A stretch of DNA of 64,000 nt, taken from IMG/VR virus record IMGVR_UViG_3300044641_005643. One strand, written 5' to 3'. A program made the position numbers and the translations under genes. A model generated the notes under the pieces. That model saw only the letters and a list, made by a program, of their open reading frames with translations. It had not been told where the DNA came from and searched no databases. The stretch comes from a virus. This document shows, piece by piece, positions 47,126 through 63,845 of this stretch; the stretch's first letter is position 1, and the number at the start of each line of letters is the position of its first letter.

Positions 47126-47154
47126 TTTACTTTTGTCAATTTTTATTGTAAAAT
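47126..47154 (+). promoter_or_regulatory. Sigma70/T4-early-like promoter heading the modification cluster
   Basis: A-tract (UP-like), TTTACT-17 nt-TAAAAT, upstream of ATG 47183. Confidence 0.5.
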
Positions 47155-47182
47155 TTAAGTATTTTACCTTTGAAAGAAAATC

Positions 47183-47497
47183 ATGACAGACGTAGATTCA
47201 TTAGTCCAAGAAGTCAAGTTGGCCACTGATTTCCAGATTAACAAAAAAATTCTAAAAGAAAAAATTCAGACTGATTTACATCTGACACACAACGGTGGCA
47301 TGTTCAAAATTACACCAGAGTTGTTGGCTTTTGTTCAAACTTGGCCGGTTGATGAATTATATTTAGAAGATGTTTATGAAAGTCCAATCAAGATTGATCG
47401 GCAAGCTTTTTTAATCACAGCACAACAACATTATCAAACAGTAATGAACAGATGGCATCAAGCATATGCAGAACTCAAACAAATTAGAAAAATCTAG
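47183..47497 (+). CDS. Hypothetical protein (104 aa)
   Basis: First ORF of the cluster, overlapping the next gene. No recognised motif. Confidence 0.7.
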   Translation: MTDVDSLVQEVKLATDFQINKKILKEKIQTDLHLTHNGGMFKITPELLAFVQTWPVDELYLEDVYESPIKIDRQAFLITAQQHYQTVMNRWHQAYAELKQIRKI

Positions 47498-48248
47498 AGG
47501 AATTTTGGCGTTTGCATACAATGTTGATACAATTGATTACGAATCAATTGCATACAAAACTCTTGAAGTTGCAAGTCAAAAATTACAATTGCCCTACACT
47601 CTGATTACAGACAAAGAATTATCAAACCATACAGAAAATATTAGATACAGTATTGATGAACACGCATTTATAAAATGGAGAAATGTTGGCAGATATCATG
47701 CTTTTGAACTTTCACCTTATGATGAGACATTGGTAATTGATGTTGATTATTTAATTTTAGAAAATAATTTAAACAAGATATTTGACTGCGATTGGGATTA
47801 TCTATTACAGAGACACAGTTTTGCTCTCACACAACAATGGCCAAAACTAATGGGTACTTCGAGCTTGCCGTATATATGGGCAACAGTTTTTGCATTTAGA
47901 AAAACTAAAAAATCAAAATTATTTTTTGATCTAGTTGGTAAAATTCAAAGGAATTATTCCTATTATTATTCTTTGTTTAATGTCAATGAAAGAAACTATA
48001 GAAATGACTATGCGTTTTCAATAGCGGACATTATACTTAATGGTTATAACCTAGAAAGTCATACCATTCCAGGAAACATGCTGGCTGTGAACCAAGTCAT
48101 TGATACTATAAAATTATTCAATAACAGTTTAATAATTAAAGATTCTAAAAAATCCTATGTTGTTCCTAAAATGAATTTGCATATAATGAGCAAGGCATAT
48201 TTACAAAGTGACAATTTTGAAACATTCATAAACGAGATACTAGAATGA
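47466..48248 (+). CDS. GT-A fold glycosyltransferase (GT8-like)
   Basis: GILAFAYN..IDY, SPYDETLVIDVDY (DxD), RNDYAF, late His. Confidence 0.65.
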   Translation: MQNSNKLEKSRGILAFAYNVDTIDYESIAYKTLEVASQKLQLPYTLITDKELSNHTENIRYSIDEHAFIKWRNVGRYHAFELSPYDETLVIDVDYLILENNLNKIFDCDWDYLLQRHSFALTQQWPKLMGTSSLPYIWATVFAFRKTKKSKLFFDLVGKIQRNYSYYYSLFNVNERNYRNDYAFSIADIILNGYNLESHTIPGNMLAVNQVIDTIKLFNNSLIIKDSKKSYVVPKMNLHIMSKAYLQSDNFETFINEILE

Positions 48249-49066
48249 ATCATAAAGAACAATTGGGTTTTTTGACAGTGGCATGTAATAATGATATTGA
48301 TTATTTGCAATTGGCTTATGTACAGGCGTTGAATATTAAAAAAACTCAGAAACACAATAAATTTGCAGTGGTGGTAGATAATCATACCAAAAAATTTATC
48401 ACAAAAAAGCACGAACAAATATTTGATTATGTTATCCAGGCACCTGATCACGATTTTGGAAAATTTGGAACTGAAGCATTTTTATTTGAATTAACCCCAT
48501 TCAAAGAAACAATCAAAATTGAAAGCGATTTGTTATTCACAAGAAGTATAGATCATTGGGTTAATGCATTTAGATTACGAGACGTAGTTTTAAGTGTTGG
48601 GTGTAAAAATTATCGGCAAGAAACATCAGACGTAAGATATTATAGAAAAACATTTGATGATAACAATTTGCCAGATGTTTATAATGGTTTGATGTATTTT
48701 AGATTTACGCAGACTGCCAAAAGTTTTTTTGATAAAGTGAAATTAATTTTCGACAATTGGGTTCATATTCAAAGTTGTTTAAGAAATTGTAGAGAAGATA
48801 CTGCCAGTACAGATTTAGTTTTTGCCATAGCCGCAAGAATGATTGGTGAAGAATTATGCACTTTGCCTAGTGCAGATTTTATAAATTTTGTGCATATGAA
48901 ACCTGCTATTAATGAATTTGATCACAGTCTTGTTTTTAAAGAAGTTTTTGTTACTGAATTCAACGAAGGGATGATCAAAATAAACAATATCAATCAATAT
49001 CATCCATTACATTACTATGATAAAAATTTTATTACTCAGGAAATGATTGAATACTATGAACGATAA
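48245..49066 (+). CDS. GT-A fold glycosyltransferase, paralog of 47466
   Basis: GFLTVA.N..IDY, TPFKETIKIESD, YNGLMYF, STDLVFA, FVHMKP. Confidence 0.65.
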   Translation: MNHKEQLGFLTVACNNDIDYLQLAYVQALNIKKTQKHNKFAVVVDNHTKKFITKKHEQIFDYVIQAPDHDFGKFGTEAFLFELTPFKETIKIESDLLFTRSIDHWVNAFRLRDVVLSVGCKNYRQETSDVRYYRKTFDDNNLPDVYNGLMYFRFTQTAKSFFDKVKLIFDNWVHIQSCLRNCREDTASTDLVFAIAARMIGEELCTLPSADFINFVHMKPAINEFDHSLVFKEVFVTEFNEGMIKINNINQYHPLHYYDKNFITQEMIEYYER

Positions 49067-49427
49067 CTTTTGGGATGAAGTTTTTAAACTAGTAGAAGAA
49101 TTTGATGCCCAGCGACCTGTAGTTTGTAAGCAAAATAGGTTATACTATAACAATGATGGCAGTGTAATAGGTTACTATGAGACCAATCATCCTGCGGGTG
49201 ATAATTATATTATTCTAGATGATCCAAACCTATTCTTCAAAAACAACACTCATTTACTAAGAGTTAAAAATAAAAAATTAACCTTGTTAGATGTCAAACG
49301 GCCCAATAAAGTTAGATTGAAACGTGCTAGTTCGGGATTTAGCACAGTTAAAGGGCACTCTGCAATACTATTAGAACAAAACGAAACTTATAATGACGTA
49401 GATTATTATGACTACCAAAACGATTGA
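49047..49427 (+). CDS. Hypothetical protein (126 aa)
   Basis: Overlaps both neighbours in the operon. Confidence 0.65.
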   Translation: MNTMNDNFWDEVFKLVEEFDAQRPVVCKQNRLYYNNDGSVIGYYETNHPAGDNYIILDDPNLFFKNNTHLLRVKNKKLTLLDVKRPNKVRLKRASSGFSTVKGHSAILLEQNETYNDVDYYDYQND

Positions 49428-50337
49428 TATAGCAGATTTAGATTGTATTTTTTTAACATATGACGAACCTAAAAAAGAAGAGTTTTGGATACGTATTCAA
49501 AACATGGTACCGTGGGCAAAGAGAGTGGATGGCGTTAAAGGATCTGACGCTGCACACAAAGCAGCCGCTGCCGCAAGTGACACAGAAAGATTTGTTCTGA
49601 TTGATGGAGACAACATACCTGATCCTGGATTTTTTAACTTACAACTCCGGCTGGACGAAAGGAATCATGACCATGTTTTTAGATGGAAGGCACGTAACAT
49701 AATAAATGGTTTGCGTTATGGCAATGGCGGTGTAAGTTGCTGGACTCGAGAGTTTGTTTATAACATGCGCACTCACGAAGCAAGCGACGGCACAGAAGAA
49801 ACGGCTGTGGAGTTTTGTTTTAATCCAAAATACACAGCCATGCACAATTGTTATAGTACAACCTATCCTAATGGTAGTGCCAAACAAGCATGGCGTGCTG
49901 GCTTTCGTGAAGGTGTAAAGATGTGTCTTGATCGAGGTCACAAACCTTCCTTACAGGAATTTGAAGAGGGTGTGAATAAAAGAAACTACGATCACTTGTG
50001 TATATGGCAAAGCGTAGGCGCTGATGTGGAAAACGGTTATTGGGCCATGTACGGAGCCAGACTAGGCACATACATGATCATGCTAGAAGGTTGGGATCAT
50101 CATCAAGTACAAGATTTTGACATGTTAGAAAAGTTATGGTCAAGCTTCGGTAAAGAAGATCCTGCGGAAGGATGCGAACAAATTGCAAATTCATTAACTA
50201 CTAGATTAGGATTACCTATTGTCACTTATACCCCAGAACAGAGTCAATTTTTTAAACATCATTATTCAACTGGTCAAAGAAATAGTGAAATCATGATGAC
50301 TGAAATTGATGTTATTCGCAGGATCGAAGGATGGTAA
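49408..50337 (+). CDS. GT-A (GT2-like) glycosyltransferase
   Basis: IFLTYDEP, RVDGVKG...AH.AAA, FVLIDGDN (DxD), AWRAGFRE. Confidence 0.6.
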   Translation: MTTKTIDIADLDCIFLTYDEPKKEEFWIRIQNMVPWAKRVDGVKGSDAAHKAAAAASDTERFVLIDGDNIPDPGFFNLQLRLDERNHDHVFRWKARNIINGLRYGNGGVSCWTREFVYNMRTHEASDGTEETAVEFCFNPKYTAMHNCYSTTYPNGSAKQAWRAGFREGVKMCLDRGHKPSLQEFEEGVNKRNYDHLCIWQSVGADVENGYWAMYGARLGTYMIMLEGWDHHQVQDFDMLEKLWSSFGKEDPAEGCEQIANSLTTRLGLPIVTYTPEQSQFFKHHYSTGQRNSEIMMTEIDVIRRIEGW

Positions 50338-51707
50338 GCGATTTTCTATCTGCAGCAGAAAAAATGAAAGACCAATTGGGTCATAGTCTATGCTTGGCCA
50401 AGTGGCAACAGGTCAGTCTGCACCTTCCTACAGGATTGACCAACAGTTGTTATCATCCACCGTTACACGAAATAGATGCTACATTATTAAAGGACAATCC
50501 CAGTGCCTTACACAACACACCATATAAAAAAGAACAGCGTAAGATTATGTTACGTAATGAAAGACCGCAAGAATGTAGCTATTGCTGGACGCAAGAAGAT
50601 TTAGGAAATCTAAGTGACAGACATTACAGATCAGGTGAGCCCTGGGCCGCAGAGCATTTTGAAACAATCACAAATTTGTCGGGCAATGAAGACGCAATTC
50701 CAAGCTATGTGGAGGTCAATTTCAATCATGCTTGCAATCTCAAGTGTTCCTATTGTAGCCCTCAGTTTAGTAGTAGCTGGGATAATGAAATTAGACGTTA
50801 TGGAGGATATCCCACTAGTACTACTCATAATGATCCATCTCATTTTACCGGTCGTAGACGACCTATCCCCACTAGAGAAAACAATCCATATGTTGATGCA
50901 TTCTGGGAGTGGTGGCCAAGTTTATATCCAAAACTGAAACATTTTAGAATGACCGGCGGCGAGCCATTAATGGATCGTAATACCTATCGAGTGTTTGACT
51001 ATGTGTTGGCGTTTCCTAAATCAGATTTGCACATCGATGTCACCAGCAATTTCAGTGTAGAAGAAAAGTTGTGGGATCAATATTTAAATTATGTCAAGCA
51101 ACTATGTAATACAAATATTGAACATTTCATGCAATATGTTAGTTTAGATTCCTGGGGCGAACATGCAGAATACATTAGACATGGTATGGATTTTTGGAAG
51201 GTGGTTAAACGAGTAGATCATTATTTAGAAGAGATTCCTTCTCGTAACAGTTTAACTTTTATAATCACCATGAGTAATTTGAATATATTAGGACTGCGTC
51301 GTTTATTAGAACTGGTTTTAGATTTACGAGACATACACAGCAAAACGTATCAACGAGTTTGGTTTGATACTCCAATCTTGAGACAACCCACTTGGCAAAG
51401 TTTACAAATATTACCGCCGGTGTACACCAAACGATTACAAGATGTAGTTGATTGGATGCAAGCCAATTTGGAAAAACCACAACGCCCATTTCAAGGATTC
51501 AAAGATTACGAAGTGCAAAGAATGCAACGAGTACTAGATTGGATGCAACAAGGTAGCAAATTAGATCAAGAATATGTTACAATACAAAGAGCAGATTTTT
51601 TTAGATTTTTTAACGAACACGACAAACGCAGAGAAACCAACTTTTTAAATACATTCCCAGAAATGCGAGAATTCTGGGACCAGTGTAAATATTACGCCAT
51701 TAACTAA
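50331..51707 (+). CDS. Radical SAM protein, N-terminal Twitch-like domain
   Basis: CLAKW...SCYHP...CSYC, then CNLKCSYC, TGGEP. Confidence 0.9.
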   Translation: MVSDFLSAAEKMKDQLGHSLCLAKWQQVSLHLPTGLTNSCYHPPLHEIDATLLKDNPSALHNTPYKKEQRKIMLRNERPQECSYCWTQEDLGNLSDRHYRSGEPWAAEHFETITNLSGNEDAIPSYVEVNFNHACNLKCSYCSPQFSSSWDNEIRRYGGYPTSTTHNDPSHFTGRRRPIPTRENNPYVDAFWEWWPSLYPKLKHFRMTGGEPLMDRNTYRVFDYVLAFPKSDLHIDVTSNFSVEEKLWDQYLNYVKQLCNTNIEHFMQYVSLDSWGEHAEYIRHGMDFWKVVKRVDHYLEEIPSRNSLTFIITMSNLNILGLRRLLELVLDLRDIHSKTYQRVWFDTPILRQPTWQSLQILPPVYTKRLQDVVDWMQANLEKPQRPFQGFKDYEVQRMQRVLDWMQQGSKLDQEYVTIQRADFFRFFNEHDKRRETNFLNTFPEMREFWDQCKYYAIN

Positions 51708-51710
51708 ATT

Positions 51711-52832
51711 ATGTCCGAAACTTTTTGTATAAAACCATGGGAGCATACTTGTATAAGAACTAATGGCAATTTTACACTCTGCTGTTTTAGTTCAGAATTG
51801 GCAAATCATAATATAAAAAGTTCTACTTTAGAGCAATGGTGGAATAGTGATTTTGTTAAAAACGTAAGACAACGGATGCTGGCAGGAGAACGTCCACATG
51901 CTTGTAATGTCTGTTATATACAAGAAGATAATGGAGTAGAAAGTTTTAGAATACGTTCAAATAGAGAATATAAAATTTTTGATGATGCAGTAGAGCACAA
52001 GCTCAAATTACTTAAATATCCAAAAAATCTTCCTGTTAATATAGAGATGCAACTTACAAACCTATGTAATCTTAAGTGTGTAAGTTGTAACGAGAGTGAA
52101 AGCAGCAGCATCCTGCATGAAAACAAAATATTAAAAATAAACTTAGAAAACCAATCGCAGTTTGACATTACTGATAATGAATTACATGTTTTGAAAGAAT
52201 TGTTACACACAGGATTGAGAAAATTGGTATTAAGAGGAGGGGAACCTTTGATTGTACCACAAGTCAAAGCCCTGCTAAAATATGCTGTAGATAATCATTT
52301 AATAGATAATACCATTATAGTGTTAGTTACAAATGGAACTAGATTTAATCAAGAATGGTTTGATATACTTTCAAAAATTAAAAAACTAAAAATACACATG
52401 AGTGTAGATGGTGTAGGCAAGTTAAATGATTATTTGCGATTTGGTAGCAATTGGAATCATGTTGAACAAAATTGTAAATTGATGTCAATGATACCAAATG
52501 TAAATTTTTTTATTCATGCTGCTATTTCAAATATGAATATTTTACATATAGATAAATTGATAGATTGGTGTGCGGAAAACAAATATTATTTAAATTATGA
52601 TTTAATTACTCAACCAGTAGAATTTGAAGTAACAAATTTGCCAGATGAATTAAAAACACTGGCTATAGAACGGTTAAAAAACAAAAAAGAAATGAGCAAT
52701 ATAATTAATAAATTAAAGAATAGTTTGGTTATTCGTAATTGGGAAAAATTTAAAAATACTATAAGCCTAAGAGAACGTGTTAGAAAAAATAGTATAATAG
52801 AAGTGGTACCTGAATTAAAAAATTACTTGTAA
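51711..52832 (+). CDS. Radical SAM protein, N-terminal SPASM/Twitch domain
   Basis: CIKPW...LCC...CNVC, then CNLKCVSC, GGEP, TNGT, SVDG. Confidence 0.9.
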   Translation: MSETFCIKPWEHTCIRTNGNFTLCCFSSELANHNIKSSTLEQWWNSDFVKNVRQRMLAGERPHACNVCYIQEDNGVESFRIRSNREYKIFDDAVEHKLKLLKYPKNLPVNIEMQLTNLCNLKCVSCNESESSSILHENKILKINLENQSQFDITDNELHVLKELLHTGLRKLVLRGGEPLIVPQVKALLKYAVDNHLIDNTIIVLVTNGTRFNQEWFDILSKIKKLKIHMSVDGVGKLNDYLRFGSNWNHVEQNCKLMSMIPNVNFFIHAAISNMNILHIDKLIDWCAENKYYLNYDLITQPVEFEVTNLPDELKTLAIERLKNKKEMSNIINKLKNSLVIRNWEKFKNTISLRERVRKNSIIEVVPELKNYL

Positions 52833-52838
52833 TTTGTT

Positions 52839-54179
52839 ATGACCGAAACCAATTTAGAATACAAAATTAGAGTCATTGATAGTAAATCAAAATCATTTTG
52901 TGGCGCGAAATGGTACAATGCAACTATATGGTTAGGAAGTGGTATGACAACCAGTTGCCATCATCCATTGCCTCATAAAATTGATCTGGATGACATTAAA
53001 AAAACGCCTTCAGCTTTACACAATACTCAGCAAAAGAAAATAGAGCGCGAACAAATGCAGCGCGGTGAGAAGCCAAAAGGTTGCGAATATTGTTGGAAAA
53101 TAGAGGACATTGGCAGAGATAACATTAGTGATCGGGTCTATAAAACTAAAATTTTTTCTGAAGAGGATTTAAATTATGCATTTAGAACATCAGCCTCAGA
53201 AGATATCAATCTTCGCACTCTTGAAATCAGTTTTGATCGTACTTGTCAGTTTGCTTGCTCTTATTGCAACCCTGCATTCAGCAGTACTTGGGTCAAAGAC
53301 ATTAATACCAATGGGCCTTATGTGGAACTTGAGTCTGACGGTAGGAACCATTTTACTCATAGTCATGATAGTGCTCAGTTGTTTAAATTTGGTCAAGATA
53401 ACCCATACGTCACGGCATTCTTCCAGTGGTGGGAATCAGATCTCCACCGAACCTTAGATGAATTGCGTATAACCGGCGGCGAACCACTCATGTCAGGTTA
53501 TACCTGGCAATTGCTTGATTGGTTTAAGGCCAACAAAGGAAAATCTAAAACCAGACTTGCAATCAACAGTAACCTAGGAACTCAAGTTGATCTCGATCGT
53601 TTATTTTCAAGTGTGGACGCACCCATTGACTTATACACTAGTAATGAAAGCGTCGGCGCTCATGCAGAGTATATTAGAAATGGATTGGCCTGGGACGATT
53701 GGGCTAGTACTGTAGAACTTGTTTGTGATAATTATAGTGGAAACAAATTGCGTGGCCTACACATAATGTGCACCATTAATGCTCTATGTTTAGAAAGTCT
53801 TACAGAGTTTTTAGATTTTATTGTTGATTGCAAAATGTGTTATGGAAAAAACTTTCCTAGCTTTACACTTAATATCTTACGATTTCCTTCTTTTCAAAGT
53901 CCTTTGATATTACCAGATGATATCAAAACTAAGTATAAATTAAACTTAGAAAAATGGTTAAGTTCGAATAATACAGAGTGGTTGCATGAACACGAAGTTA
54001 ATCACCTACAAAGACTAATTGATTATCTTGACGTAGTGAAAACGCCTCATGCTAATTCTGCTGAACAAATAATTTTACAAAAAGATTTTAAAAAATTTTA
54101 CGCTCAGTACGATCAACGAAGAAATAAAAATTTTTGCACCACGTTTACGGGTTTAGCAGATTGGTATAAAAGTATATGA
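52839..54179 (+). CDS. Radical SAM protein, N-terminal Twitch-like domain
   Basis: CGAKW...SCHHP...CEYC, then CQFACSYC, TGGEP. Confidence 0.9.
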   Translation: MTETNLEYKIRVIDSKSKSFCGAKWYNATIWLGSGMTTSCHHPLPHKIDLDDIKKTPSALHNTQQKKIEREQMQRGEKPKGCEYCWKIEDIGRDNISDRVYKTKIFSEEDLNYAFRTSASEDINLRTLEISFDRTCQFACSYCNPAFSSTWVKDINTNGPYVELESDGRNHFTHSHDSAQLFKFGQDNPYVTAFFQWWESDLHRTLDELRITGGEPLMSGYTWQLLDWFKANKGKSKTRLAINSNLGTQVDLDRLFSSVDAPIDLYTSNESVGAHAEYIRNGLAWDDWASTVELVCDNYSGNKLRGLHIMCTINALCLESLTEFLDFIVDCKMCYGKNFPSFTLNILRFPSFQSPLILPDDIKTKYKLNLEKWLSSNNTEWLHEHEVNHLQRLIDYLDVVKTPHANSAEQIILQKDFKKFYAQYDQRRNKNFCTTFTGLADWYKSI

Positions 54180-55615
54180 ATAAATTAAACAAAACAGCTT
54201 ATGAATCTCTTGCTGGGGAAAATTGGCCAACTTATGAAGATTATTTAGAAGACAAAATTAATGACAACATTATCCGTTTAGAATTGAAACATCTCGAAAA
54301 AGAATCAGCAGAAATAAACAGAGGGTACGATTATAATTCTTTGAAGCCATTATATATAAATTTTAATGAATTGTCTGCTGATCAAAAATACAAATTGACT
54401 GAAAGTAAAACATTTTGTATGATGCCGTGGGTGCATATGCATGGTTTTCCGGACGGTCGTGCATATGTTTGTTGTTTTAGTGATTATTGGCATCCCGTTG
54501 GTGATTTTAGAAAAAATACCATGAAGGAAATTTGGAATTCAGATGGATACAAAGCACTTCGAAAAAATATGATAAATGACCAGCAATCAAAGGAATGTTC
54601 AAAATGTTACGAACAGGAAAAAAATGGATTTTTTAGTTTGCGAAATGATGCAAACAAAACTTATGGTCATCATATTAATGATATTCAAAAAACTAACGAA
54701 TCTGGAAATCATCCGGAATTTAAAATCAGGTATTGGGACGTAAGATTTAGTAATCTCTGTAATTTTAGTTGTAGATCGTGTGGGCCGGTGTTCAGTTCAA
54801 ATTGGTTTAATGATCATGTTAAACTTTACAATAGAAAACCAGATGTTCTTGGAAGGGAGATGTTAAGAGTAGAATACATTGCCGGTGACGAAGATGCAAT
54901 GATAGAACAAATGCTACCACACATTCCATATCTTGAACAAGTATATTTTGCCGGCGGCGAACCACTAATAATGAAAGAACATTATTTTTTATTGGAAAAA
55001 CTATTAGAACATGGGAAAACAGATATCCGTATTTTATATAACACAAATTTTAGTGAATTAAGATATAAAGATAAACACGTATTTGATTATTGGAAACACT
55101 TTAAAAATGTAGGAGTAGGTGCAAGTCTGGATGCTAGTGGTGCCAGAGGAGAACTGATGCGTAAAGGACAAAATTGGAAACAAACTTTAGAAAATCGTAA
55201 GTTGATGATTGAACAAGTGCCTCATGTTAATTTTTATATTAGTGCAACTTTAAGTGCAATGAATATTCTTCACATACTTGATTTTCATAAAGAATGGGTA
55301 GAGTTGGGCTTGATTGAACCAAAGGATTTTAACGTTAATATTTGTCAAAGTCCTGAATGGTATAGAATAGATATACTTCCAGAAGATTTTAAAAACAATG
55401 TTGTTATTCCTGCCTTTGAAAAACATATTGCTTGGTTGCAACCACATGATAAATTAGAACGTGCTACTAATGGATACAAAGCCGCTCTTAATTTTATTGC
55501 AGCAAATGATAACAGTCATTTGCTTCCTACATTTATCCAAGAAGTTGAAAAATTAGACTATGTTCGTAAAGAAAATTTTTGGAATACATTTTCTGAATTG
55601 CAATTTTTAAAATGA
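54176..55615 (+). CDS. Radical SAM protein, N-terminal SPASM/Twitch domain and WP leader
   Basis: CMMPW...VCC...CSKC, then CNFSCRSC, AGGEP, YNTN. Confidence 0.9.
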   Translation: MNKLNKTAYESLAGENWPTYEDYLEDKINDNIIRLELKHLEKESAEINRGYDYNSLKPLYINFNELSADQKYKLTESKTFCMMPWVHMHGFPDGRAYVCCFSDYWHPVGDFRKNTMKEIWNSDGYKALRKNMINDQQSKECSKCYEQEKNGFFSLRNDANKTYGHHINDIQKTNESGNHPEFKIRYWDVRFSNLCNFSCRSCGPVFSSNWFNDHVKLYNRKPDVLGREMLRVEYIAGDEDAMIEQMLPHIPYLEQVYFAGGEPLIMKEHYFLLEKLLEHGKTDIRILYNTNFSELRYKDKHVFDYWKHFKNVGVGASLDASGARGELMRKGQNWKQTLENRKLMIEQVPHVNFYISATLSAMNILHILDFHKEWVELGLIEPKDFNVNICQSPEWYRIDILPEDFKNNVVIPAFEKHIAWLQPHDKLERATNGYKAALNFIAANDNSHLLPTFIQEVEKLDYVRKENFWNTFSELQFLK

Positions 55616-56823
55616 ATTTACCAAGTACAATATGTATGTTACCTTGGATTAGCATAGAAACTAGTCCAATTGGCACTGCTAGACCCTGTTGTCTGGCTAG
55701 AGAAGAAATTACCAATAATGAAGGTGTCAAATTTGATCTCAATCAAGATAATCTGGAAACTATATACAACAGTGATTACATGCAAAAATTACGCAAGCAG
55801 TTTCGTGCAGGTCAAAAACCAGAAACATGCAAGTTATGTTGGGACGAGGAAGCTGCAGGAAGAACAAGTAAACGTATCAATAGTAGAATTAGATTAAAAG
55901 AATTATATTCAGAGGTTGATTGGGAAAATGATAAACCAAATCAACTTTGGTTCTTAGATCTCAAGCTAGGAAACATTTGCAATTTAAAATGCCGTATATG
56001 CGGATCCTGGTCTAGTAGTAAATGGGCTGCAGAAGAACTAGATTACATTCCAAAAAGTGCTGACAAAAAACAACATATTGCTTATCAATGGTTAAAACAA
56101 GGAGCATGGCCTCGGAATCAAGATACAAATTTTTGGAACAATTTAAAAGAATTGTTGCCTAATATTAAATATCTGGAATTTACCGGCGGAGAACCGTTCC
56201 TCATCCAGGAACATTTTGATTTGCTAAAATTTGCAGTTGATAATGGATATAGCAAAAATATAGATATCCATTACAATACAAATGGCACAGTAGATCCGGA
56301 CGAATCTCACTTATGGCAACATTTTGGTCGTGTTGATATTGCGTTTAGCATTGATAATGTTGGTAAGCGTTTTGAATACGAACGATATGGCGCTAAATGG
56401 GAAGAAGTAAACGATAACATTATATGGATTAGTTCCTACAAACAACATAACAACAACATTACTACTCAACTTTGCTTAACTGTGAATATACAAAATGTGT
56501 ATTATTTAGATGAATTATTAGCCTGGGCAGATAGTAAACCGTTTGATAACATTTATTTCAATATGATGCACAGCCCAGATCATATGAATATACAGCACAT
56601 GACCCCAGCCGCAAAGGAATTAGTTTTGAATAAACTAAAAACAACATTTTGGACTGCTAAACATTACCAACGTGAAATAGATAATATTATAAAATTTATA
56701 GAATTAGGTACAGGTAGCGATGGCGCAGAATTTTTACAAAGAATGAAACAAACGGATCTTTATAGAAATCAAAATTTTTCTGATACTCACCCAGAAATAG
56801 CACGAGCGATGGGTTATGATTAA
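55612..56823 (+). CDS. Radical SAM protein, N-terminal SPASM/Twitch domain
   Basis: CMLPW...PCC...CKLC, then CNLKCRIC, TGGEP, NTNGT. Confidence 0.9.
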   Translation: MNLPSTICMLPWISIETSPIGTARPCCLAREEITNNEGVKFDLNQDNLETIYNSDYMQKLRKQFRAGQKPETCKLCWDEEAAGRTSKRINSRIRLKELYSEVDWENDKPNQLWFLDLKLGNICNLKCRICGSWSSSKWAAEELDYIPKSADKKQHIAYQWLKQGAWPRNQDTNFWNNLKELLPNIKYLEFTGGEPFLIQEHFDLLKFAVDNGYSKNIDIHYNTNGTVDPDESHLWQHFGRVDIAFSIDNVGKRFEYERYGAKWEEVNDNIIWISSYKQHNNNITTQLCLTVNIQNVYYLDELLAWADSKPFDNIYFNMMHSPDHMNIQHMTPAAKELVLNKLKTTFWTAKHYQREIDNIIKFIELGTGSDGAEFLQRMKQTDLYRNQNFSDTHPEIARAMGYD

Positions 56824-58091
56824 TGCAAAATTTAAAGTTAATTACAGACGAAAAAATTTATAGAACATGGAAAGGTGCAGATTGGCCCTCTTATGATGAT
56901 TTTGTTAATCAGAATTACATAGTAAGTGACACTATACAAAAAGAAATAGAAAACTTTATAGATGTCATTTCAAAAAAATACAAAGATTTAACTGAGGCAA
57001 GAACTGAAGAATTATCTATAGCAAATCAAAAAAGACAAGGTCAAATATTTTTTAATAAAAAATACAAAGGGAATACCTATTGCAGGATACCATGGGATAC
57101 CATTGGTATTAATGCAAATGGGAATGTTTATATTTGTCAAAGCCCGTCCTGGGTGCCAATTTTTGTAGGTAACATTCTAGAGACAAATGATATATTTGAA
57201 ATTTTAAATTCAGAAATAGCTAGGAAAATTAGATTTCAAATTCTTAATAAGACATACCACTATTGTAATAGTACAATATGCAGTTATTTTCAAAAAATAG
57301 ATAAAAATAGATATGAAACATTTCCTACTAACAAGGAAGATTTAGTCAAAAAAGATTTTGTTGATTCTCCAGAATTATACCTTGCTAATATACCTAAAGA
57401 AATTATTTTTGATTTTGACTACACATGTAATCTTAAATGTCCCAGTTGCAGAACAGAAAATATTAATTGGAATAATGATTACGTAATCAGACCAACAAAC
57501 AATAAGATAGTAAAAAAAATTAAAGAATTAATAATAGATAAAATAGATAATAGTTTGACTACTATTCGTTGGTGCGGAGGGGAACCTTTCATGAGCGAAG
57601 TTTATTTAGATCTACTCGATTACATATCGAATAGTAATAAAACTAATATACAGAATGTAATACAAACAAATGGAAGTTTGTTTCAAGCAAAAGAAAAGTT
57701 AGTTTTAAAATTATTACCTTATATTTCTACACTTCGTATTAGTTATGATGCTGGATGCGAAGAAACTTATAAATTAACAAGAGTTGGCGGAGATTGGAAA
57801 AGACTTTTAGAAAATACAAATTTTGTTTTAACGCTCATTAAAGACAATAATTTTAGAACTTCTGTTCAAGCAGATTTTGTAGTTCAAAAAAATAATTATA
57901 AAGATATTCCTGAATTTATTAGTATTTGTAAAAATTTTAATATTACTCCCAATTTACAAAAAATGTGGAATTGGGGCACATGGGATGATGAGATTTTTGA
58001 AGAACAAAATATTTATAACGTGAATCATTCTTTATATAACAATTTAAAACAAATTTTTGAAATAGTCAATATACCTATTGCAAAAAATTAA
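56823..58091 (+). CDS. Radical SAM protein, N-terminal SPASM/Twitch domain and WP leader
   Basis: CRIPW...YIC...CNSTIC, then CNLKCPSC, GGEP, QTNG. Confidence 0.9.
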   Translation: MQNLKLITDEKIYRTWKGADWPSYDDFVNQNYIVSDTIQKEIENFIDVISKKYKDLTEARTEELSIANQKRQGQIFFNKKYKGNTYCRIPWDTIGINANGNVYICQSPSWVPIFVGNILETNDIFEILNSEIARKIRFQILNKTYHYCNSTICSYFQKIDKNRYETFPTNKEDLVKKDFVDSPELYLANIPKEIIFDFDYTCNLKCPSCRTENINWNNDYVIRPTNNKIVKKIKELIIDKIDNSLTTIRWCGGEPFMSEVYLDLLDYISNSNKTNIQNVIQTNGSLFQAKEKLVLKLLPYISTLRISYDAGCEETYKLTRVGGDWKRLLENTNFVLTLIKDNNFRTSVQADFVVQKNNYKDIPEFISICKNFNITPNLQKMWNWGTWDDEIFEEQNIYNVNHSLYNNLKQIFEIVNIPIAKN

Positions 58092-58092
58092 T

Positions 58093-59388
58093 ATGAATAG
58101 ACCTGAAACACTTTGCATGGCACCCTGGACTCATACGTATCTTAGCCCACAAACAGAAAGGCGGATGTGCTGCGCTAGTCGCGAACCCGCACAAAACTTC
58201 GAACAGTATATTGATACAAAATCAGGCACAGGGCGATATATTCCTATTACGTTAGAAGAACATTGGAATGGGGAACATATGCGTTCAGTTCGCAGACGTA
58301 TGTTATCTGGAGAAATATTACCTGAATGTGAAGTTTGTAATAATAAGCTGTTAAATACAGACATTTACCGCAGTTATTTTAATTCTCTATTTGGACATAA
58401 GTACAAGCAAGTACTAGAACATACTGATGCGAGTGGTTATACTACTATGAAGCCGATCAGTTGGGACTACCGGTTCAGTAACTTATGTAATTTCAAATGC
58501 CGTATGTGCGGCGACATGTTGTCTAGTAGTTGGGAAAGTGAGCAACGACAAAACAACATGATCAATTGGTCAAATCCAAAGAACAATTGGATGCAACCTG
58601 AAATCAAGAAACAAATTGAACAGTTCCAGACTACTCAGATTGAAGCCGAGTTTGCAGCAGCAGTAGAGGACCACCGTGTAGAGGAAGTGTATTGGGTGGG
58701 AGGAGAACCGTTAATGTACGAACAACATTGGCGGTACATGCAGCGAATTATAGAACTGGGAGATGGACCACGTGTTTATGCTAGATACAATACTAATCTT
58801 AGCCGCATTGATTTTAGAGGTTGTAATCTTTATAGCGATATACTTGCTCATCTGCGCGACTGGCAAATCTGCGCAAGTATTGATGGTACAGGCCGAATTG
58901 GAGAATATATCCGAACAGGCCTTGATTATGAAACGTGGCTTGCAAACTTTAAGGCAGGAGTTGCATTTGCTCGCCACCGGCGACAAATGAGATTGGACTT
59001 CACACTTACCCTTCCGGGTATGTTTGAAGTGATCAAAATACAACGGTTAGCCAAGGAGTTAGGCGTTGATGTATTGGCCAAGGTTGTGTTTAGTTTTAGC
59101 CCGGACATAGTTATGTCACCTTTGGCTCTGCCTAGATCCGTTTTAGATTCCTGGCTAAATGAATTAATAGCCCAGATTGAAACAGGCACACTCAAAAACA
59201 TGTTAGTTCAACTCAAAACACGCCCTACCTTTCAAGAACAATATGGTAAGGATGCTTATTTTGAAGGGGTTGCTCGAGGCAAGTCTCGTATGTTACAATT
59301 AGAATCTATTCGTAGTCAATCTATAACTATGGATGAAATACTATCAAAGAGAGCTGATGTATATGAGTGGTGGACGGCCATCAATTAA
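58093..59388 (+). CDS. Radical SAM protein, N-terminal SPASM/Twitch domain
   Basis: CMAPW...MCC...CEVC, then CNFKCRMC, VGGEP, SIDG. ATG start 58093 just after the upstream stop. Confidence 0.9.
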   Translation: MNRPETLCMAPWTHTYLSPQTERRMCCASREPAQNFEQYIDTKSGTGRYIPITLEEHWNGEHMRSVRRRMLSGEILPECEVCNNKLLNTDIYRSYFNSLFGHKYKQVLEHTDASGYTTMKPISWDYRFSNLCNFKCRMCGDMLSSSWESEQRQNNMINWSNPKNNWMQPEIKKQIEQFQTTQIEAEFAAAVEDHRVEEVYWVGGEPLMYEQHWRYMQRIIELGDGPRVYARYNTNLSRIDFRGCNLYSDILAHLRDWQICASIDGTGRIGEYIRTGLDYETWLANFKAGVAFARHRRQMRLDFTLTLPGMFEVIKIQRLAKELGVDVLAKVVFSFSPDIVMSPLALPRSVLDSWLNELIAQIETGTLKNMLVQLKTRPTFQEQYGKDAYFEGVARGKSRMLQLESIRSQSITMDEILSKRADVYEWWTAIN

Positions 59389-60457
59389 AGTTGTACTTCG
59401 AAATCCTTTAAATTATAATGATAAAATTGATTACAATATATTACCTCACGACAACAGCCTTGCTCAAGATTGGATTGATGCCTTAAAACAGTTATTGAGA
59501 AATAAAAATTTAATAGAAAAAGATTTTTGTTTTTTAGGTTTTCCACATACAGCTCGTACCACTGAATATCTATGTAATGAACTTAATCAGGCAGTAAGCA
59601 CTATTAACAATTTTTTTAGTGATTATAAAATACACGATTACTTTACTCCAGATAATGTTTTGGCATATGATTATGCGCCAAATGGTCCTAATCATGAATT
59701 GTTAAATCAATTACATAATCATTTTGAAATACTACAAGGAACAGTATGGGAATTGAGTGATTACTATATTAGGGGAGATTACGAAACCAAATATGCTATC
59801 AGACAACTTAACACACTGTGTCACGAATTAGAATCCTTAATTTTAAGCAAAAGAAAATTTGCCACAATACCACAATGGGTAAGACCCAGTCAAATAACCA
59901 CTTTTATAAATGCCGCTCGATACGATTTAAAATTTACACATAGACAACTGTTTGCTATTAATGGATATGATAGAGTGTTAGGTGGAGTTTATATGCATTG
60001 GTCGCAAATTGGTAAAACATTATTTGAAGTATTTAGAGATGAAAATGCACCAGACCTAACAGAAACGGTGTGCCAAAGTATCACTGAATTAAAATATTAC
60101 AGTGGTGAATTTGACGTTGAATGGGGTAATAGTGTTGTTTATGGCAACAAAGATGTTTCGTGGCATACAGAAGAACAAAACAATTTTAGAGAGTGGTTGA
60201 GCAAGAATGGCAGAGATTATAAAGATGTTTCATTGAGTTGTGGTTATTTGCCAATTGGTCAAGTTGATTTACAAGGCAGTTTTGGTAACACAGATGGCGA
60301 AACAATATGGAAAATATTAGGCAATTATTTAGACATCTACAGCGTAGAAGTTGATGGTGTGACCAATATATTTGATTACAGTTGGGCCGATGCTGATTAT
60401 AAACAGATACAAATTAATAGGATGAAACCAGGATATGATTATAGTAGCCGGCGGTGA
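59363..60457 (+). CDS. Hypothetical protein within the modification cluster
   Basis: LNQLHNHFE, LNTLCHELE, W.QIGKT..E.F.D motifs. Start could be 59333, 59357 or 59363. Confidence 0.65.
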   Translation: MSGGRPSIKVVLRNPLNYNDKIDYNILPHDNSLAQDWIDALKQLLRNKNLIEKDFCFLGFPHTARTTEYLCNELNQAVSTINNFFSDYKIHDYFTPDNVLAYDYAPNGPNHELLNQLHNHFEILQGTVWELSDYYIRGDYETKYAIRQLNTLCHELESLILSKRKFATIPQWVRPSQITTFINAARYDLKFTHRQLFAINGYDRVLGGVYMHWSQIGKTLFEVFRDENAPDLTETVCQSITELKYYSGEFDVEWGNSVVYGNKDVSWHTEEQNNFREWLSKNGRDYKDVSLSCGYLPIGQVDLQGSFGNTDGETIWKILGNYLDIYSVEVDGVTNIFDYSWADADYKQIQINRMKPGYDYSSRR

Positions 60458-61274
60458 TAGTTTTGTATTTGGATCAGAATTAAAAGATCAATTTGGTATA
60501 GAGCCGAGTAAATTCACTTATCCTGCTTTATTAGCAAAGGAATGTAATTTTGAGTATAGGTGCATAGCCCGGCCAGGTAGCGCAAATAATGCTATTAGTA
60601 GATTAATAATTTCCGAGTGCGAAAAAATAAAAGAAAATAATATTGGCGTTATTGTAACTTGGACTTTTACACACCGTTACGAATTTAGATTTAATTACGA
60701 TACTCAACAAAGATACAGTCCTTGGTATAGCATAAACTCTTGGGTTACACTTGACGATCATGGTGAGATCTTGGACGAGTACCGCACTAAGAATTTATCT
60801 GAGTTAGAAATGCAAAAATCCTATTTTGAGCGAGCAAAAAAAATAGGAATATCTGATTTTGCAAAAACTTTTTATAAACATGTGGGTGCTAGCGAATATT
60901 ACGAATTATATACAAGTCTTAGAGAGATATTGTTCTTACAATTGTATTTTGAACAAAATAACATTCCTTATTTGTTTTTGCCAGCAGACAATCATTTTTT
61001 TGATCATCCAAATTATTATAGACAACGAGATGAGTATATAGATAGTTTATACAAACAAATAAAATGGAACCATTGGTTCTTTTTTGAATCAGGTACTCAA
61101 GCAAATGAAACTAAAGAACCAAGAGGTTTTTATCAATGGGCAATAGAAAATAAATATCCGGTAGGAGTAACACATCCGTTAGAAGCAGCTCATGCCGATG
61201 CTGCAAAATTAATTAAGGAAAAATTCAATGAACTGGTTAAAAAACCTTTGGAACAGAATTCAATTAGAAATTAA
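60435..61274 (+). CDS. SGNH/GDSL hydrolase-fold protein
   Basis: GDSFVFG block I, G.AN, C-terminal THPLEAAH. Confidence 0.75.
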   Translation: MIIVAGGDSFVFGSELKDQFGIEPSKFTYPALLAKECNFEYRCIARPGSANNAISRLIISECEKIKENNIGVIVTWTFTHRYEFRFNYDTQQRYSPWYSINSWVTLDDHGEILDEYRTKNLSELEMQKSYFERAKKIGISDFAKTFYKHVGASEYYELYTSLREILFLQLYFEQNNIPYLFLPADNHFFDHPNYYRQRDEYIDSLYKQIKWNHWFFFESGTQANETKEPRGFYQWAIENKYPVGVTHPLEAAHADAAKLIKEKFNELVKKPLEQNSIRN

Positions 61275-61329
61275 ATATAGACGAAAACTACGAGAATTAC
61301 GTAAACGAGATCCTTTTATCTATAAATGA
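61228..61329 (+). CDS. 33 aa basic micropeptide MNWLKNLWNRIQLEIKYRRKLRELRKRDPFIYK
   Basis: Below the ORF-track cutoff. AAGGA SD upstream. Fills the gap between the two SGNH genes and ends in an ATGA overlap with 61326. Confidence 0.7.
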   Translation: MNWLKNLWNRIQLEIKYRRKLRELRKRDPFIYK

Positions 61330-61973
61330 TTTATGCAATAGGAGACAGTTTCACATACGGTGATGAATTGTCATCACAGGATTTGGCTTGGCCGGCTTTG
61401 TTATCAAAAAAATTAGGTAATCAAGTTATTAATAAAGGCCGATCTGCTACTGGAAATCATCGCATGGTCAAACGAGCATTAGATGCGGTAATCAATAATG
61501 CCAACTGTATTATTATTGGTTGGAGCAACTGTAATAGACAAGAGTTTGCAGATGATATAGGAATTTATGATATATGGCCCGGAAGAGACTATAGAGCATT
61601 TCAGCTCGATGATCCCACACATCGTATTACTCAAATAAAGTATATGACAGCCTACCACACGCCAAAATATTATTATGCCAATTGGCTAAGACAGATTATT
61701 CTAATACAGAATTTGTGTAAATCAAATAGTATACCTTGTGTCATGTTTATTGCTTGCGGTGCGCATAATGATCACAAAAGTTATTCTAGTGAATTTCCTA
61801 AACTTGTAAATGCAATCGATCATTCTGTTTTTGTTGACAATATGTTCACAAGTGTTGCAGAATGGACCTGGGGCACACCACATGGACCTAACGATCATCC
61901 TTTAGAAGCCGGGCACGAAATAATAGCGCAAAAAATTTATGAACATATTAGGAATAAGTGCCGGATTCCATGA
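61326..61973 (+). CDS. SGNH/GDSL hydrolase-fold protein
   Basis: IGDSFTYG, N.G...TGN, C-terminal DHPLEAGH. Confidence 0.78.
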   Translation: MIYAIGDSFTYGDELSSQDLAWPALLSKKLGNQVINKGRSATGNHRMVKRALDAVINNANCIIIGWSNCNRQEFADDIGIYDIWPGRDYRAFQLDDPTHRITQIKYMTAYHTPKYYYANWLRQIILIQNLCKSNSIPCVMFIACGAHNDHKSYSSEFPKLVNAIDHSVFVDNMFTSVAEWTWGTPHGPNDHPLEAGHEIIAQKIYEHIRNKCRIP

Positions 61974-63417
61974 TGCCGCGGCCACAGTTATTAACACACA
62001 AGGCGATATACTTTTTGCTGGTCATAGCGAACGATACAGTAAAAAGAAAAATGATCAAAATTTTTGTCAAGGACTACTTGATGATGTTTTACCCTACGGT
62101 CCAGAAACGGTTGCATATTACGAACGACCTTGGAAAAAGCAATTACGCAGATTTTATTCAGGCGAAGGTGTCAATTGGAATTCGCTAACAGTTAAACAAA
62201 TTCTAAAACAACAACTAGGTGGTTGGATAGAACCTGACCGTGTTTGTAGTTTTAATCATCACCTAAGTCATGCAGCAGCGGGTTTTCAAACTAGCCCATA
62301 TGATCGTGCAACAGTGGTTGTTATTGATGCCATAGGTGAATGGGATACGATTAGCATATGGGGTGCAGAATATGATAGTAGAGGTTATGCACACTATAAA
62401 CGTCTATGGGGACAACGATATCCTCATAGTATAGGTTTATTTTATAGTGCAATGACCAAACGAGTGGGTCTCAAACCCAACGAAGATGAATATATTCTGA
62501 TGGGTATGAGTGCATATGGTCGTAATAGCTATGCGACCTCTTTACAAGATTTGTATGTTGATAACGAATGGACAGCTACATTTAAACAAAATTTGCATAT
62601 AGGCTCAGATGAAAAATTTATACCAGACATACATGACTCGGATTTAGCACAAGCTGCACAAAAAGTTTTAGAAAGATTAGTGTATAATATAATGCGTCGT
62701 GCTAGAGACTTTGCGTGGAGCACCAATCTAGTATACATGGGTGGCGTGGCCTTAAACTGTTTAGCAAATAGAAACTTAGGAGAGTATTTTGAAAACATTT
62801 GGATTATGCCTAATCCTGGTGATGCTGGTAGCAGCCTTGGTGCTGCCGCACTTGAATATGGGCGTCGTGTTAATTGGGTTAATGCTTATCTTGGTCACCG
62901 TATACCGGGACCATATCCCGTTACGCCTATTCTTGACGCTTTGTTATCTGACGGGATTTGCGGTGTTGCTAGCGGTCGCGCTGAGTTCGGGCCTCGTGCG
63001 TTAGGTAATAGAAGTCTATTGGCTGATCCAAGAGGACCCAATATAAAGGATAGAGTAAATGAAATCAAACGCAGACAAAAATTTAGACCCTTTGCCCCTG
63101 TCATACTGGAAGAGATGGCTGATCAGTATTTTATTTTCCGCAACGGGTGGCATAATAGCCGTTACATGCAGTCAGTCGCTCAGTGTAGGTATCCTAACCG
63201 TTTTCCTGCTATATGTCATTATGATGGCACCAGTAGAGTACAAACAGTTCCGCGAGATGATTCAGGAATCAGAGAACTGTTAGAAAAATGGTTCATGCTG
63301 ACCGATTGCCCTATGTTGCTAAACACAAGTTTAAACATAAAAGGTGAGCCTATGGTCAATGATAGAGCTGATGCAGATAGATTTGAAAGTAAATACCATG
63401 TACAGGTGTTTTCATGA
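61939..63417 (+). CDS. O-carbamoyltransferase (NodU/CmcH/TobZ family)
   Basis: ILGIS.GFHDAAA, HHLSHAA, GGVALNC, GDAG, EFGPRALGNRS, FRPFAP, DGTSRVQTV, LLNTSLN. Confidence 0.95.
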   Translation: MNILGISAGFHDAAATVINTQGDILFAGHSERYSKKKNDQNFCQGLLDDVLPYGPETVAYYERPWKKQLRRFYSGEGVNWNSLTVKQILKQQLGGWIEPDRVCSFNHHLSHAAAGFQTSPYDRATVVVIDAIGEWDTISIWGAEYDSRGYAHYKRLWGQRYPHSIGLFYSAMTKRVGLKPNEDEYILMGMSAYGRNSYATSLQDLYVDNEWTATFKQNLHIGSDEKFIPDIHDSDLAQAAQKVLERLVYNIMRRARDFAWSTNLVYMGGVALNCLANRNLGEYFENIWIMPNPGDAGSSLGAAALEYGRRVNWVNAYLGHRIPGPYPVTPILDALLSDGICGVASGRAEFGPRALGNRSLLADPRGPNIKDRVNEIKRRQKFRPFAPVILEEMADQYFIFRNGWHNSRYMQSVAQCRYPNRFPAICHYDGTSRVQTVPRDDSGIRELLEKWFMLTDCPMLLNTSLNIKGEPMVNDRADADRFESKYHVQVFS

Positions 63418-63845
63418 CAACTAGAATACTTATAATGGGGTTACCAGGTGCAGGAAAGACTACATTGGCCCTTAACTTACTCAATTACTTTAGTCCTGAT
63501 GTTCTTTGGCTTAATGCAGACGAAATTAGAAGAAAGTTTAATGATTGGGATTTTAGCTATAAAGGAAGAATTCGTCAAAGTCGGCGTATGCGAGAAATAG
63601 CAGATGTGTCAAATAGAGATTACATTATTGCAGATTTTGTTTGCCCACTTGAAGAAATGCGTGAAATCTTTGATCCTGATTTTCTAATATGGGTCGATAC
63701 AATCTCAGAAGGAAGATTTGAAGATACTAATCGAGCATTTGTACCACCTGATCAGTATGATGTTAGAGTAACAGAACAAGATGCAGATAAATGGGCAAAA
63801 ATAATTTATGAACAAATATCACATAAGATTCAATCACGAACATAA
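63414..63845 (+). CDS. Adenylylsulfate (APS) kinase-like P-loop protein
   Basis: GLPGAGKTT, LNADEIR, WDFS..GRIRQ, DFVCP. Shorter than CysC. Confidence 0.7.
   Translation: MTTRILIMGLPGAGKTTLALNLLNYFSPDVLWLNADEIRRKFNDWDFSYKGRIRQSRRMREIADVSNRDYIIADFVCPLEEMREIFDPDFLIWVDTISEGRFEDTNRAFVPPDQYDVRVTEQDADKWAKIIYEQISHKIQSRT

Follow-up and report, generated by a model that had tools for sequence, protein, structure and literature searches.

What could a virus build with seven radical S-adenosylmethionine (SAM) enzymes that are encoded one behind the other, next to glycosyltransferase-like genes? This question is raised by the IMG/VR virus record IMGVR_UViG_3300044641_005643, of which we analysed a stretch of 64,000 nucleotides (the window). 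An initial annotation had pointed to an uninterrupted run of about 17 kb of overlapping same-strand genes right behind the last tail-fibre gene, and had read it as a phage-encoded line for the assembly and tailoring of a glycan, with three glycosyltransferases (GTs), seven radical SAM enzymes, two SGNH proteins, a carbamoyltransferase and an adenosine 5'-phosphosulfate (APS) kinase. The run itself is borne out from 47183 to the end of the window. It consists of 17 successive open reading frames (ORFs) on the plus strand (47183-63845), while an 18th crosses the window end. Neighbouring frames overlap or are separated by a few bases; the biggest gap, 66 nt, lies ahead of 47183, and a gap of 51 nt between 61274 and 61326 is occupied by a conserved ORF of 33 amino acids (aa). 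We lean moderately towards the explanation that this cassette (genes lettered as in Table 1) encodes a late-expressed and wholly cytoplasmic line that assembles a glycan and tailors it by radical chemistry; the likeliest acceptor would be the phage's own distal tail-fibre proteins. This reading draws on observed gene content, folds, motifs, synteny and sugar-gene context, from which we infer each chemical step, the order of the steps and the acceptor.

The radical SAM array and its partner enzymes

The seven tandem radical SAM genes of the initial annotation were found again at 50331-59388. Six of the encoded proteins match the NCBIfam family NF033640 (N_Twi_rSAM, curated cut-off 170 bits) with 282-392 bits, and the divergent p shares the same architecture. 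All seven contain the CxxxCxxC motif (C135, C139 and C142), the GGEP motif and the N-terminal cysteines C21, C82 and C85 as invariant features. Furthermore, the twitch domain is situated at the N-terminus in all of them according to Pfam, NCBIfam and the alignment, i.e. the domain order is permuted; Pfam reports the succession SPASM and then Radical_SAM in five of the seven. In l, for example, SPASM (residues 6-68) stands ahead of Radical_SAM (114-286), and the same order is found in p (87-149 and 201-336). It was considered whether miscalled genes could simulate the permutation of a normal order with radical SAM followed by SPASM. This was rejected, because the neighbouring genes are in different frames and show ATGA-type overlaps, and NF033640 spans each ORF from end to end. 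The paralogues are 20-33% identical to each other, hence the duplications are old. Both n (54176-54400) and p (56823-57080) begin with about 75 additional aa (Y..G..WP.Y.D) that are missing from the other five enzymes; many n orthologues begin only near residue 48.

The previously proposed relation to BtrN, a twitch radical SAM enzyme acting on a cyclitol, has to be divided. It holds for the twitch domain, since the best of all PDB matches to positions 11-86 of the n orthologue profile is the BtrN twitch, residues 162-258 (E 1e-5 and 3e-5). It does not hold for the domain order, which is permuted in the cassette enzymes, nor for their core, which is not specifically BtrN-like. In the proposed line, the core enzymes k, m, n, o and q and the accessory enzymes l and p would cleave SAM at the cluster bound by CxxxCxxC and abstract a hydrogen atom from a sugar carbon, with the N-terminal BtrN-like [4Fe-4S] cluster of the twitch serving as electron relay. 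Depending on the enzyme, the outcome may be an oxidation, a dehydration, an epimerisation or the formation of a C-C or C-O bond, each at a different position of the glycan.

The protein r probably belongs to the same machinery. Searches of Pfam, PHROG and NCBIfam returned no match, profile searches of the PDB gave only matches at chance level, and the model in the Atlas (pLDDT 0.33) is too poor for use. Nevertheless, its homologues share the invariant residues H128, N160, H164 and K228, and E132 and E167 are almost invariant. In the 754-aa protein P0262, an r-type domain (residues 20-306) is naturally fused to an n-type N_Twi radical SAM enzyme (332-746), and by this fusion r is, as judged from sequence, functionally tied to the radical SAM enzymes, with which it would work together. 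Other r homologues have unassigned N-terminal domains of 130 or 400 aa.

Regarding the three proposed GTs, two can be assigned by fold to the GT8/glycogenin type, while the evidence for the third is weaker; GT-A folds were thus found where the initial annotation expected them. None of the three proteins g, h and j has a match in Pfam or PHROG, and the Pfam family Glyco_transf_8 does not match g or h even at E<=10. However, the AlphaFold2 (AF2) model of h (pLDDT 75) retrieved 355 PDB matches at E<=1e-3 with Foldseek, the best of them being glycogenin-2 (E 1.9e-7). The top folds comprise glycogenin, UGGT, LARGE1 and LH3, with 7-16% identity to the solved structures, and in BFVD the model is matched by GT8 proteins of giant viruses and phages. 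The sequence profile of h searched against the PDB gave a weak glycogenin match as well (E 0.4). The protein g is linked to h by BLASTP (25%) and hhalign (97.3%, E 1.9e-11, 191 columns), its residues D92 and D94 are invariant among the orthologues, and a later His/Lys motif is conserved. The modelled fold hence confirms h as a predicted GT-A glycosyltransferase of the GT8 type, and g can be assigned to the same type via its homology to h.

The third protein, j, is probably a GT, too. Its AF2 model (pLDDT 79) yielded weak Foldseek matches to PBCV-1 A64R, PcManGT and RmlT (E about 5e-3) and VIA Z values of 7-8.7 over residues 5-175, where GT-A as well as nucleotidyltransferase folds are matched. 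The Pfam family Glyco_tranf_2_3 appears at E 0.11 only, the neighbours in the Atlas form virus-only clusters, some of which were automatically named 'Glycosyltransferase 2-like', and the median identity of j across relatives amounts to 70%. The enzymes g, h and probably j would transfer sugars from nucleotide sugars to the acceptor.

Downstream of r, the two SGNH proteins and the carbamoyltransferase named in the initial annotation could be verified. In s and t together with their orthologues, the SGNH blocks I (GDS), II (G), III (N) and V (H) are kept, including the invariant residues G7-D8-S9, N51 and H247; proteins of the DUF6071 family follow distant arrays as well. The two proteins may add or remove O-acyl groups. 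The product of u contains both Pfam domains of carbamoyltransferases and matches NovN, GdmN and TobZ at E values from 6e-43 to 2e-33, with the HHxxH (H107, H108, H111), GGVALN and DAGSS motifs all invariant; its score for the NodU equivalog is below the cut-off (131 vs 1000 bits). It would O-carbamoylate a hydroxyl group, perhaps aided by the 33-aa micro-protein. This basic peptide is kept in about 50 loci at 42-94% identity, with an invariant W3 and D-P-F-x-Y end. No Pfam family, including DUF5989 (PF19451), matches it at E<=1. Nonetheless, its N-terminal 17 aa align with the DUF5989/SxtK protein of a bacterial carbamoyltransferase locus (hhalign probability 38%) and the PFIY end is common to both, whereas a basic segment is found in place of the central transmembrane helix of DUF5989.

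In contrast, the assignment of v as APS kinase had to be revised. Only its N-terminal half (residues 4-84) matches the Pfam family APS_kinase (30.5 bits), the NCBIfam model apsK/TIGR00455 reaches 26 bits compared to a cut-off of 139, and in the PDB search PSTK (E 1.4e-4) ranks ahead of APS kinase (5e-3). The protein is therefore better described as a small P-loop kinase, a homologue of which is situated inside the cassette in the viral locus L077. The formerly suggested production of 3'-phosphoadenosine 5'-phosphosulfate (PAPS) loses its ground as well: because v appears as a generic kinase and no sulfotransferase was found, this idea is weak. Pfam scans of the cassette proteins turned up no sulfotransferase, and Sulfotransfer_3 was without match in five relatives (completeness at least 97% for four of them), in which the other sulfotransferase families were not searched. 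It is conceivable that v phosphorylates a hydroxyl group or supplies an activated donor.

Gene order, relatives and sugar context

A search with n collected 70 viral loci, which differ in completeness and harbour arrays of 4-12 tandem N_Twi radical SAM genes. In 30 of these loci, the ten core genes g, h, j, k, m, n, o, q, r and u occur in one order and on one strand; most of the other loci are cut by contig ends or represent more distant array types. The synteny survey therefore found the co-conservation on which the initial annotation had made its reading depend. The core radical SAM enzymes (k, m, n, o, q) as well as j and u show median identities of 66-75%, compared to only 38-39% for the fibre proteins d and e, whereas l and p are accessory enzymes of patchy occurrence across the loci. 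Complete relatives of 340-375 kb encode 6-14 members of NF033640 above the cut-off, some of them distant from the array. Among 14 control genomes, none had an NF033640 match above the cut-off, and only 19 of 50,697 deposited phage records showed weak matches. Hence, the statement that such an array is extraordinary for a virus is justified with regard to cultured phages, but not with regard to uncultured ones, and the seven-gene array is not unique, since arrays in relatives reach 12 radical SAM genes.

At the DNA level, a megablast search of the region against the 50,697 phage records returned no match, i.e. no cultured phage is similar. The nearest virus record (G001, containing the loci L001 and L002) is a 32-kb fragment that spans only the first 6 kb of the cassette region. 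Over 47126-53289, it is 97% identical up to and including j, and the value falls to 75% where the radical SAM genes begin. Such a drop suggests that a recombination break is located where the GT genes meet the radical SAM array.

The N_Twi family is abundant in metagenomes and not restricted to viruses. A genome scan with n orthologues found it to be common in Bdellovibrionota, Bacteroidota and Elusimicrobia genomes, with an expansion in predatory bacteria. Some phage sequences have been placed in bacterial bins: a 2.5-kb contig binned as uncultured Polynucleobacter (L076) resembles a phage fragment and carries m, n and o (69% identity), and other phage contigs are found in bins of Legionellales, Haliscomenobacter and further taxa. 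These placements represent weak hints to hosts or errors of binning. The gene context of a standalone N_Twi radical SAM gene in Agaribacillus is uninformative.

The neighbourhood of the arrays points to carbohydrates. Genes for a Hexapep acetyltransferase, Epimerase/GDP_Man_Dehyd proteins and a DegT aminotransferase are inserted in or beside the arrays of relatives, and further relatives encode paired GT7 enzymes fused to ConA-like lectin domains, UDP-glucose dehydrogenase, short-chain dehydrogenases/reductases (SDRs), B12-binding radical SAM enzymes and DegT proteins. Moreover, on a chromosome of Crocinitomicaceae (L150) three N_Twi radical SAM genes lie beside genes for UDP-glucose dehydrogenase, an epimerase and a fusion of UbiA, GT4 and SGNH domains, in a locus that also codes for a sulfotransferase, an SGNH protein and a carbamoyltransferase together with SxtJ and DUF5989 (SxtK). 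Thus, the reading of the cassette as a line for the assembly and tailoring of sugars or glycans is supported by the GT-A folds, the co-conservation, the inserted genes for nucleoside diphosphate (NDP)-sugars, the bacterial glycan locus and the BtrN-like auxiliary domain. As a separate observation, three distant arrays (L049, L050 and L048) have B12-binding radical SAM enzymes of 714-756 aa and a shorter radical SAM type of 325-330 aa interleaved with the N_Twi genes. In another relative (L157), a convergent set of DegT, 2-oxoglutarate oxygenase and epimerase genes is located further on.

The window originates from a jumbo myophage. PHROG matches between 14 and 46 kb comprise virion, baseplate hub, baseplate wedge and tail-fibre proteins; the baseplate wedge protein shows 38% identity to its counterpart in Pseudomonas phage PA5oct and is matched by other large myophages, too. 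One ORF of 4896 aa (26916-41606, plus strand) separates the gene of the baseplate wedge protein from those of the tail fibres. The N-terminal 81 aa of d share 43% identity with the fibre protein encoded at 42306-43421, and a d homologue precedes the cassette in 29 loci. The gene e is found directly upstream of f in 33 loci, with a median identity of only 38%, and its product is likely a distal fibre component and a candidate acceptor. Promoter-like or terminator-like sites in the cassette do not exceed those in shuffled sequence, so nothing contradicts a co-transcription with the upstream fibre genes. The truncated gene w was considered as a dCMP deaminase gene, by analogy to the one that follows the v homologue in L157, and this was rejected, as the two sequences are not related.

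Table 1. Genes of the cassette and the two genes ahead of it, with their coordinates in the window and the support for each assignment.
Gene	Position	Strand	Product	Support
d	44486..46141	+	tail-fibre-like protein, 551 aa	PHROG tail-fibre/virion matches; weak C-terminal match to Peptidase_G2 intramolecular chaperone
e	46151..47116	+	321-aa protein rich in T/N/G/A, 0 Cys	composition; family searches without match
f	47183..47497	+	104-aa conserved protein, no family match	present in 36 loci
g	47466..48248	+	predicted GT8-like GT-A glycosyltransferase, DxD (D92-x-D94)	paralogue of h
h	48245..49066	+	predicted GT8/glycogenin-like GT-A glycosyltransferase	AF2 model, Foldseek
i	49047..49427	+	126-aa conserved protein, no family match	present in 31 loci
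j	49408..50337	+	phage-specific protein, GT-A-like N-terminal half, invariant D66-G-D68	AF2 model, Foldseek, VIA
k	50331..51707	+	N_Twi radical SAM enzyme, core	NF033640 325 bits; 51 loci, median identity 71%
l	51711..52832	+	N_Twi radical SAM enzyme, accessory	NF033640 297 bits; only 23 loci, median identity 33%
m	52839..54179	+	N_Twi radical SAM enzyme, core; closest paralogue of k (33%)	NF033640 292 bits
n	54176..55615	+	N_Twi radical SAM enzyme, core	NF033640 392 bits; 69 loci; >5,600 database homologues
o	55612..56823	+	N_Twi radical SAM enzyme, core	NF033640 349 bits; 66 loci
p	56823..58091	+	divergent radical SAM enzyme, same permuted architecture, accessory	NF033640 101 bits, below cut-off; 7 loci
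q	58078..59388	+	N_Twi radical SAM enzyme, core	NF033640 282 bits; 49 loci, median identity 75%
r	59333..60457	+	374-aa conserved protein, no assigned fold	660 representatives in a library of 1.8 billion proteins
s	60435..61274	+	SGNH-fold protein, hydrolase/acyltransferase-like	paralogue of t; GDS, G, N and H blocks kept
micro-ORF	61228..61329	+	33-aa basic peptide, MNWLKNLW...RKRDPFIYK	overlaps s; ATGA-coupled to t
t	61326..61973	+	SGNH/DUF6071 protein	DUF6071 39.5 bits (cut-off 27); Lipase_GDSL 23.3 bits
u	61939..63417	+	NodU/NovN/TobZ-type O-carbamoyltransferase, 492 aa	Carbam_trans_N 134 bits, Carbam_trans_C 160 bits
v	63414..63845	+	143-aa P-loop kinase	phrog_10255 'kinase', E 1.7e-23
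w	63808..63999	+	5' part of another overlapping gene, truncated where the window ends	homologues in 7 loci

The acceptor and competing explanations

Where would such a glycan be placed? Transmembrane helices were predicted for none of the cassette proteins, and the family scans detected no flippase, polymerase, initiating transferase or lipid-carrier transferase among them; because of this, the acceptor is probably cytoplasmic. The distal tail-fibre proteins of the phage, encoded immediately upstream, would be suitable candidates. In favour of the virion, the cassette is part of the structural module and fixed behind the fibre genes, an array in another relative (L067) stands beside a tail-sheath gene, and the best GT8 matches of h act on proteins or glycoproteins. 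Mycobacteriophages, chloroviruses and mimiviruses are known to glycosylate their virions with own GTs, and in mycobacteriophages the capsid and the tail tube are reportedly among the glycosylated structures. A virion protein as acceptor is accordingly plausible, though unproven, and is derived from the position of the genes.

However, several observations weigh against a virion-directed glycan line. In h, the residues E93-S94-D95 align at the position of the DxD motif of g, and the fold support for j is modest and fits a nucleotidyltransferase as well. One of the distant arrays (L048) adjoins a DNA ligase gene and lacks a recognisable GT. In the Bacteriovoracaceae metagenome-assembled genome UBA6144 (L110/L155), eight N_Twi radical SAM genes are inserted at 6055-18051 between the genes for ribosomal proteins L21/L27 and obg on the one side and lgt on the other, and no sugar gene was recognised nearby. 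Furthermore, a dCMP deaminase gene directly follows the homologue of the kinase gene v in L157. Finally, we found neither a characterised member nor a known substrate of NF033640, and no paper on this family.

Other products of the same enzymes were considered as well. The chemistry could remain as proposed, but yield a free tailored (pseudo)oligosaccharide resembling aminoglycosides, which is released in the infected cell. A BtrN-like twitch radical SAM enzyme, a carbamoyltransferase of the TobZ/NovN type and a small kinase indeed parallel aminoglycoside pathways, relatives additionally have DegT aminotransferases, SDRs and genes resembling B12-dependent radical SAM methylases, and all cassette proteins are soluble. 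Nevertheless, we regard a free product as unlikely, given that neither a 2-deoxy-scyllo-inosose synthase-like enzyme nor another scaffold-forming one was seen, that the GT8 matches (glycogenin, UGGT, LH3 and LARGE1) target proteins or glycoproteins, and that the cassette is fixed behind tail-fibre genes with no exporter or self-resistance gene recognised. A bolder variant, which we consider quite improbable, would be a virus-encoded pathway of secondary metabolism, in which a GT-built (pseudo)oligosaccharide is remodelled by 5-12 permuted-twitch radical SAM enzymes through undescribed carbohydrate chemistry and subsequently carbamoylated, acylated and phosphorylated, resulting in a free molecule similar to aminoglycosides that would serve the phage during infection. 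If this were true, jumbo phages would have to be counted among the producers of natural products. Another target could be the phage DNA, where a tailored glycan or a carbamoylated group on a base would help to evade host nucleases. Among the components of known phage DNA hypermodification pathways are GTs and radical SAM enzymes, P-loop DNA kinases, and groups of the acyl or carbamoyl type. The initial annotation had disfavoured DNA partly because no nucleotide-related genes were seen in the cassette, an argument that can no longer be upheld in this form: besides v as a P-loop kinase and the dCMP deaminase following v in the relative mentioned above, a full-length ThyA gene is located 11-19 kb past the array in all five relatives G002-G006 (records of L007, L027, L072, L005 and L064). 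This ThyA-family gene is the only one in each of the five and scores 352-365 bits over the full model, from which it was taken to be an ordinary thymidylate synthase and not a hydroxymethylase. Moreover, the cassette contains no gene for a base hydroxymethylase or a pyrophosphorylase-type enzyme, belongs to the late structural and not to the replication module, and has its bacterial homologues in a glycan locus. A modified base is therefore regarded as a rather unlikely product.

It is equally doubtful that the cassette merely provides modified nucleotide sugars or glycan pieces, which are then placed on the cell surface by the envelope machinery of the host, for example to block superinfection. 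The similarity of L150 to a locus for surface glycans or glycolipids, indicated by the UbiA-GT4-SGNH fusion, would fit this idea, but among the cassette products there is no membrane protein, no flippase or exporter and no lipid-carrier transferase. Temperate phages are the ones that typically cause seroconversion, and the window showed no lysogeny gene. The conserved 33-aa peptide opens still another view: it could be the precursor of a ribosomally synthesised and post-translationally modified peptide (RiPP), which is crosslinked or oxidised by the radical SAM enzymes and then glycosylated and carbamoylated, comparable to mycofactocin, which is likewise derived from a peptide and glycosylated. 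Such a role would agree with a micro-ORF peptide that is more conserved than the enzymes and carries an invariant aromatic C-terminal motif, with its presence in several array types, some of which have the carbamoyltransferase gene 11-19 kb away, and with weak matches of l to the peptide-modifying SPASM/twitch maturases SkfB, PapB and MftC. On the other hand, Pfam and NCBIfam revealed no RiPP recognition element (RRE)/PqqD-like domain in the cassette proteins, although f, i and r could hide one, and the peptide resembles the carbamoyltransferase partner DUF5989/SxtK at both ends. Its ORF directly precedes the carbamoyltransferase gene in L038, L039 and L091. Arrays in records without a carbamoyltransferase also lack the peptide, records with the micro-ORF have the enzyme somewhere in the island, and the bacterial arrays are without peptide. 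A co-fold of the peptide with the carbamoyltransferase scored 0.00, which counts neither for nor against binding. We favour, with moderate confidence, a putative partnership of the peptide with the carbamoyltransferase over a role as precursor, and a RiPP pathway appears very unlikely to us.

Comparison with known systems

Returning to the glycan assembly and tailoring line, virus-encoded glycan machineries and the tailoring of sugars by radical SAM enzymes are both known, whereas we found no characterised precedent for their combination and scale. No paper was found on the function of the NF033640 family, the N-terminal twitch domain or radical SAM arrays in phages. Twelve radical SAM genes were counted in one marine T4-like genome, given as a count only (Nishimura et al., 2017; PMC5332604), and the 'moraphage' paper (PMC12619734) contains no mention of such genes.

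Compared to NF033640, six of the seven enzymes match from end to end above the cut-off, and the architecture is the same, with an N-terminal twitch, the CxxxCxxC core and a C-terminal helical region. Only the score of p is low (101 bits), n and p additionally possess the N-terminal extension described above, and the name of the family is uninformative on function. BtrN, the 2-deoxy-scyllo-inosamine dehydrogenase of butirosin synthesis (PDB 4M7T/4M7S), shares one auxiliary [4Fe-4S] site in addition to the SAM cluster, but its twitch is C-terminal and it comprises 250-270 aa in contrast to 370-480 aa in the cassette enzymes.

Regarding the retaining GT8 enzymes glycogenin and LgtC and the related catalytic domains of UGGT, LARGE1 and LH3, the similarity consists in the fold matches of h, in the DxD motif of g and in a conserved later His/Lys motif; the differences are that both proteins are outside Pfam Glyco_transf_8, that h has E-S-D, and that the identity to solved structures is 7-16%. 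The carbamoyltransferase u has both domains and the HHxxH motif in common with the NodU/CmcH enzymes NovN, GdmN and TobZ, but is shorter than TobZ or NovN. The relation to the SxtJ/SxtK partners is restricted to the small ORF just upstream of u with its similar N-terminus and PFIY end, while no SxtJ homologue was seen.

The virion glycosylation systems of mycobacteriophages, of chloroviruses (PBCV-1 A64R) and of the mimivirus fibril resemble the cassette in the use of own GT-A enzymes encoded beside structural genes and in their soluble cytoplasmic components; the top folds include A64R for j and GT8 proteins of giant viruses for h. They differ, however, in that they are not known to use radical SAM enzymes, of which 5-12 per cassette are found here together with a carbamoyltransferase, an SGNH pair and a kinase. 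A known substrate would show whether exotic glycans cover the fibres of large environmental phages, which bears on host recognition and on the evasion of defence. The gene set is small enough for direct expression and testing, and with a single substrate solved, a new field of carbohydrate chemistry by radical enzymes would open up. Single sugar steps by radical SAM enzymes such as BtrN are already known; the cassette would add to them a conserved line of five to twelve different radical SAM enzymes wired to glycosyltransferases.

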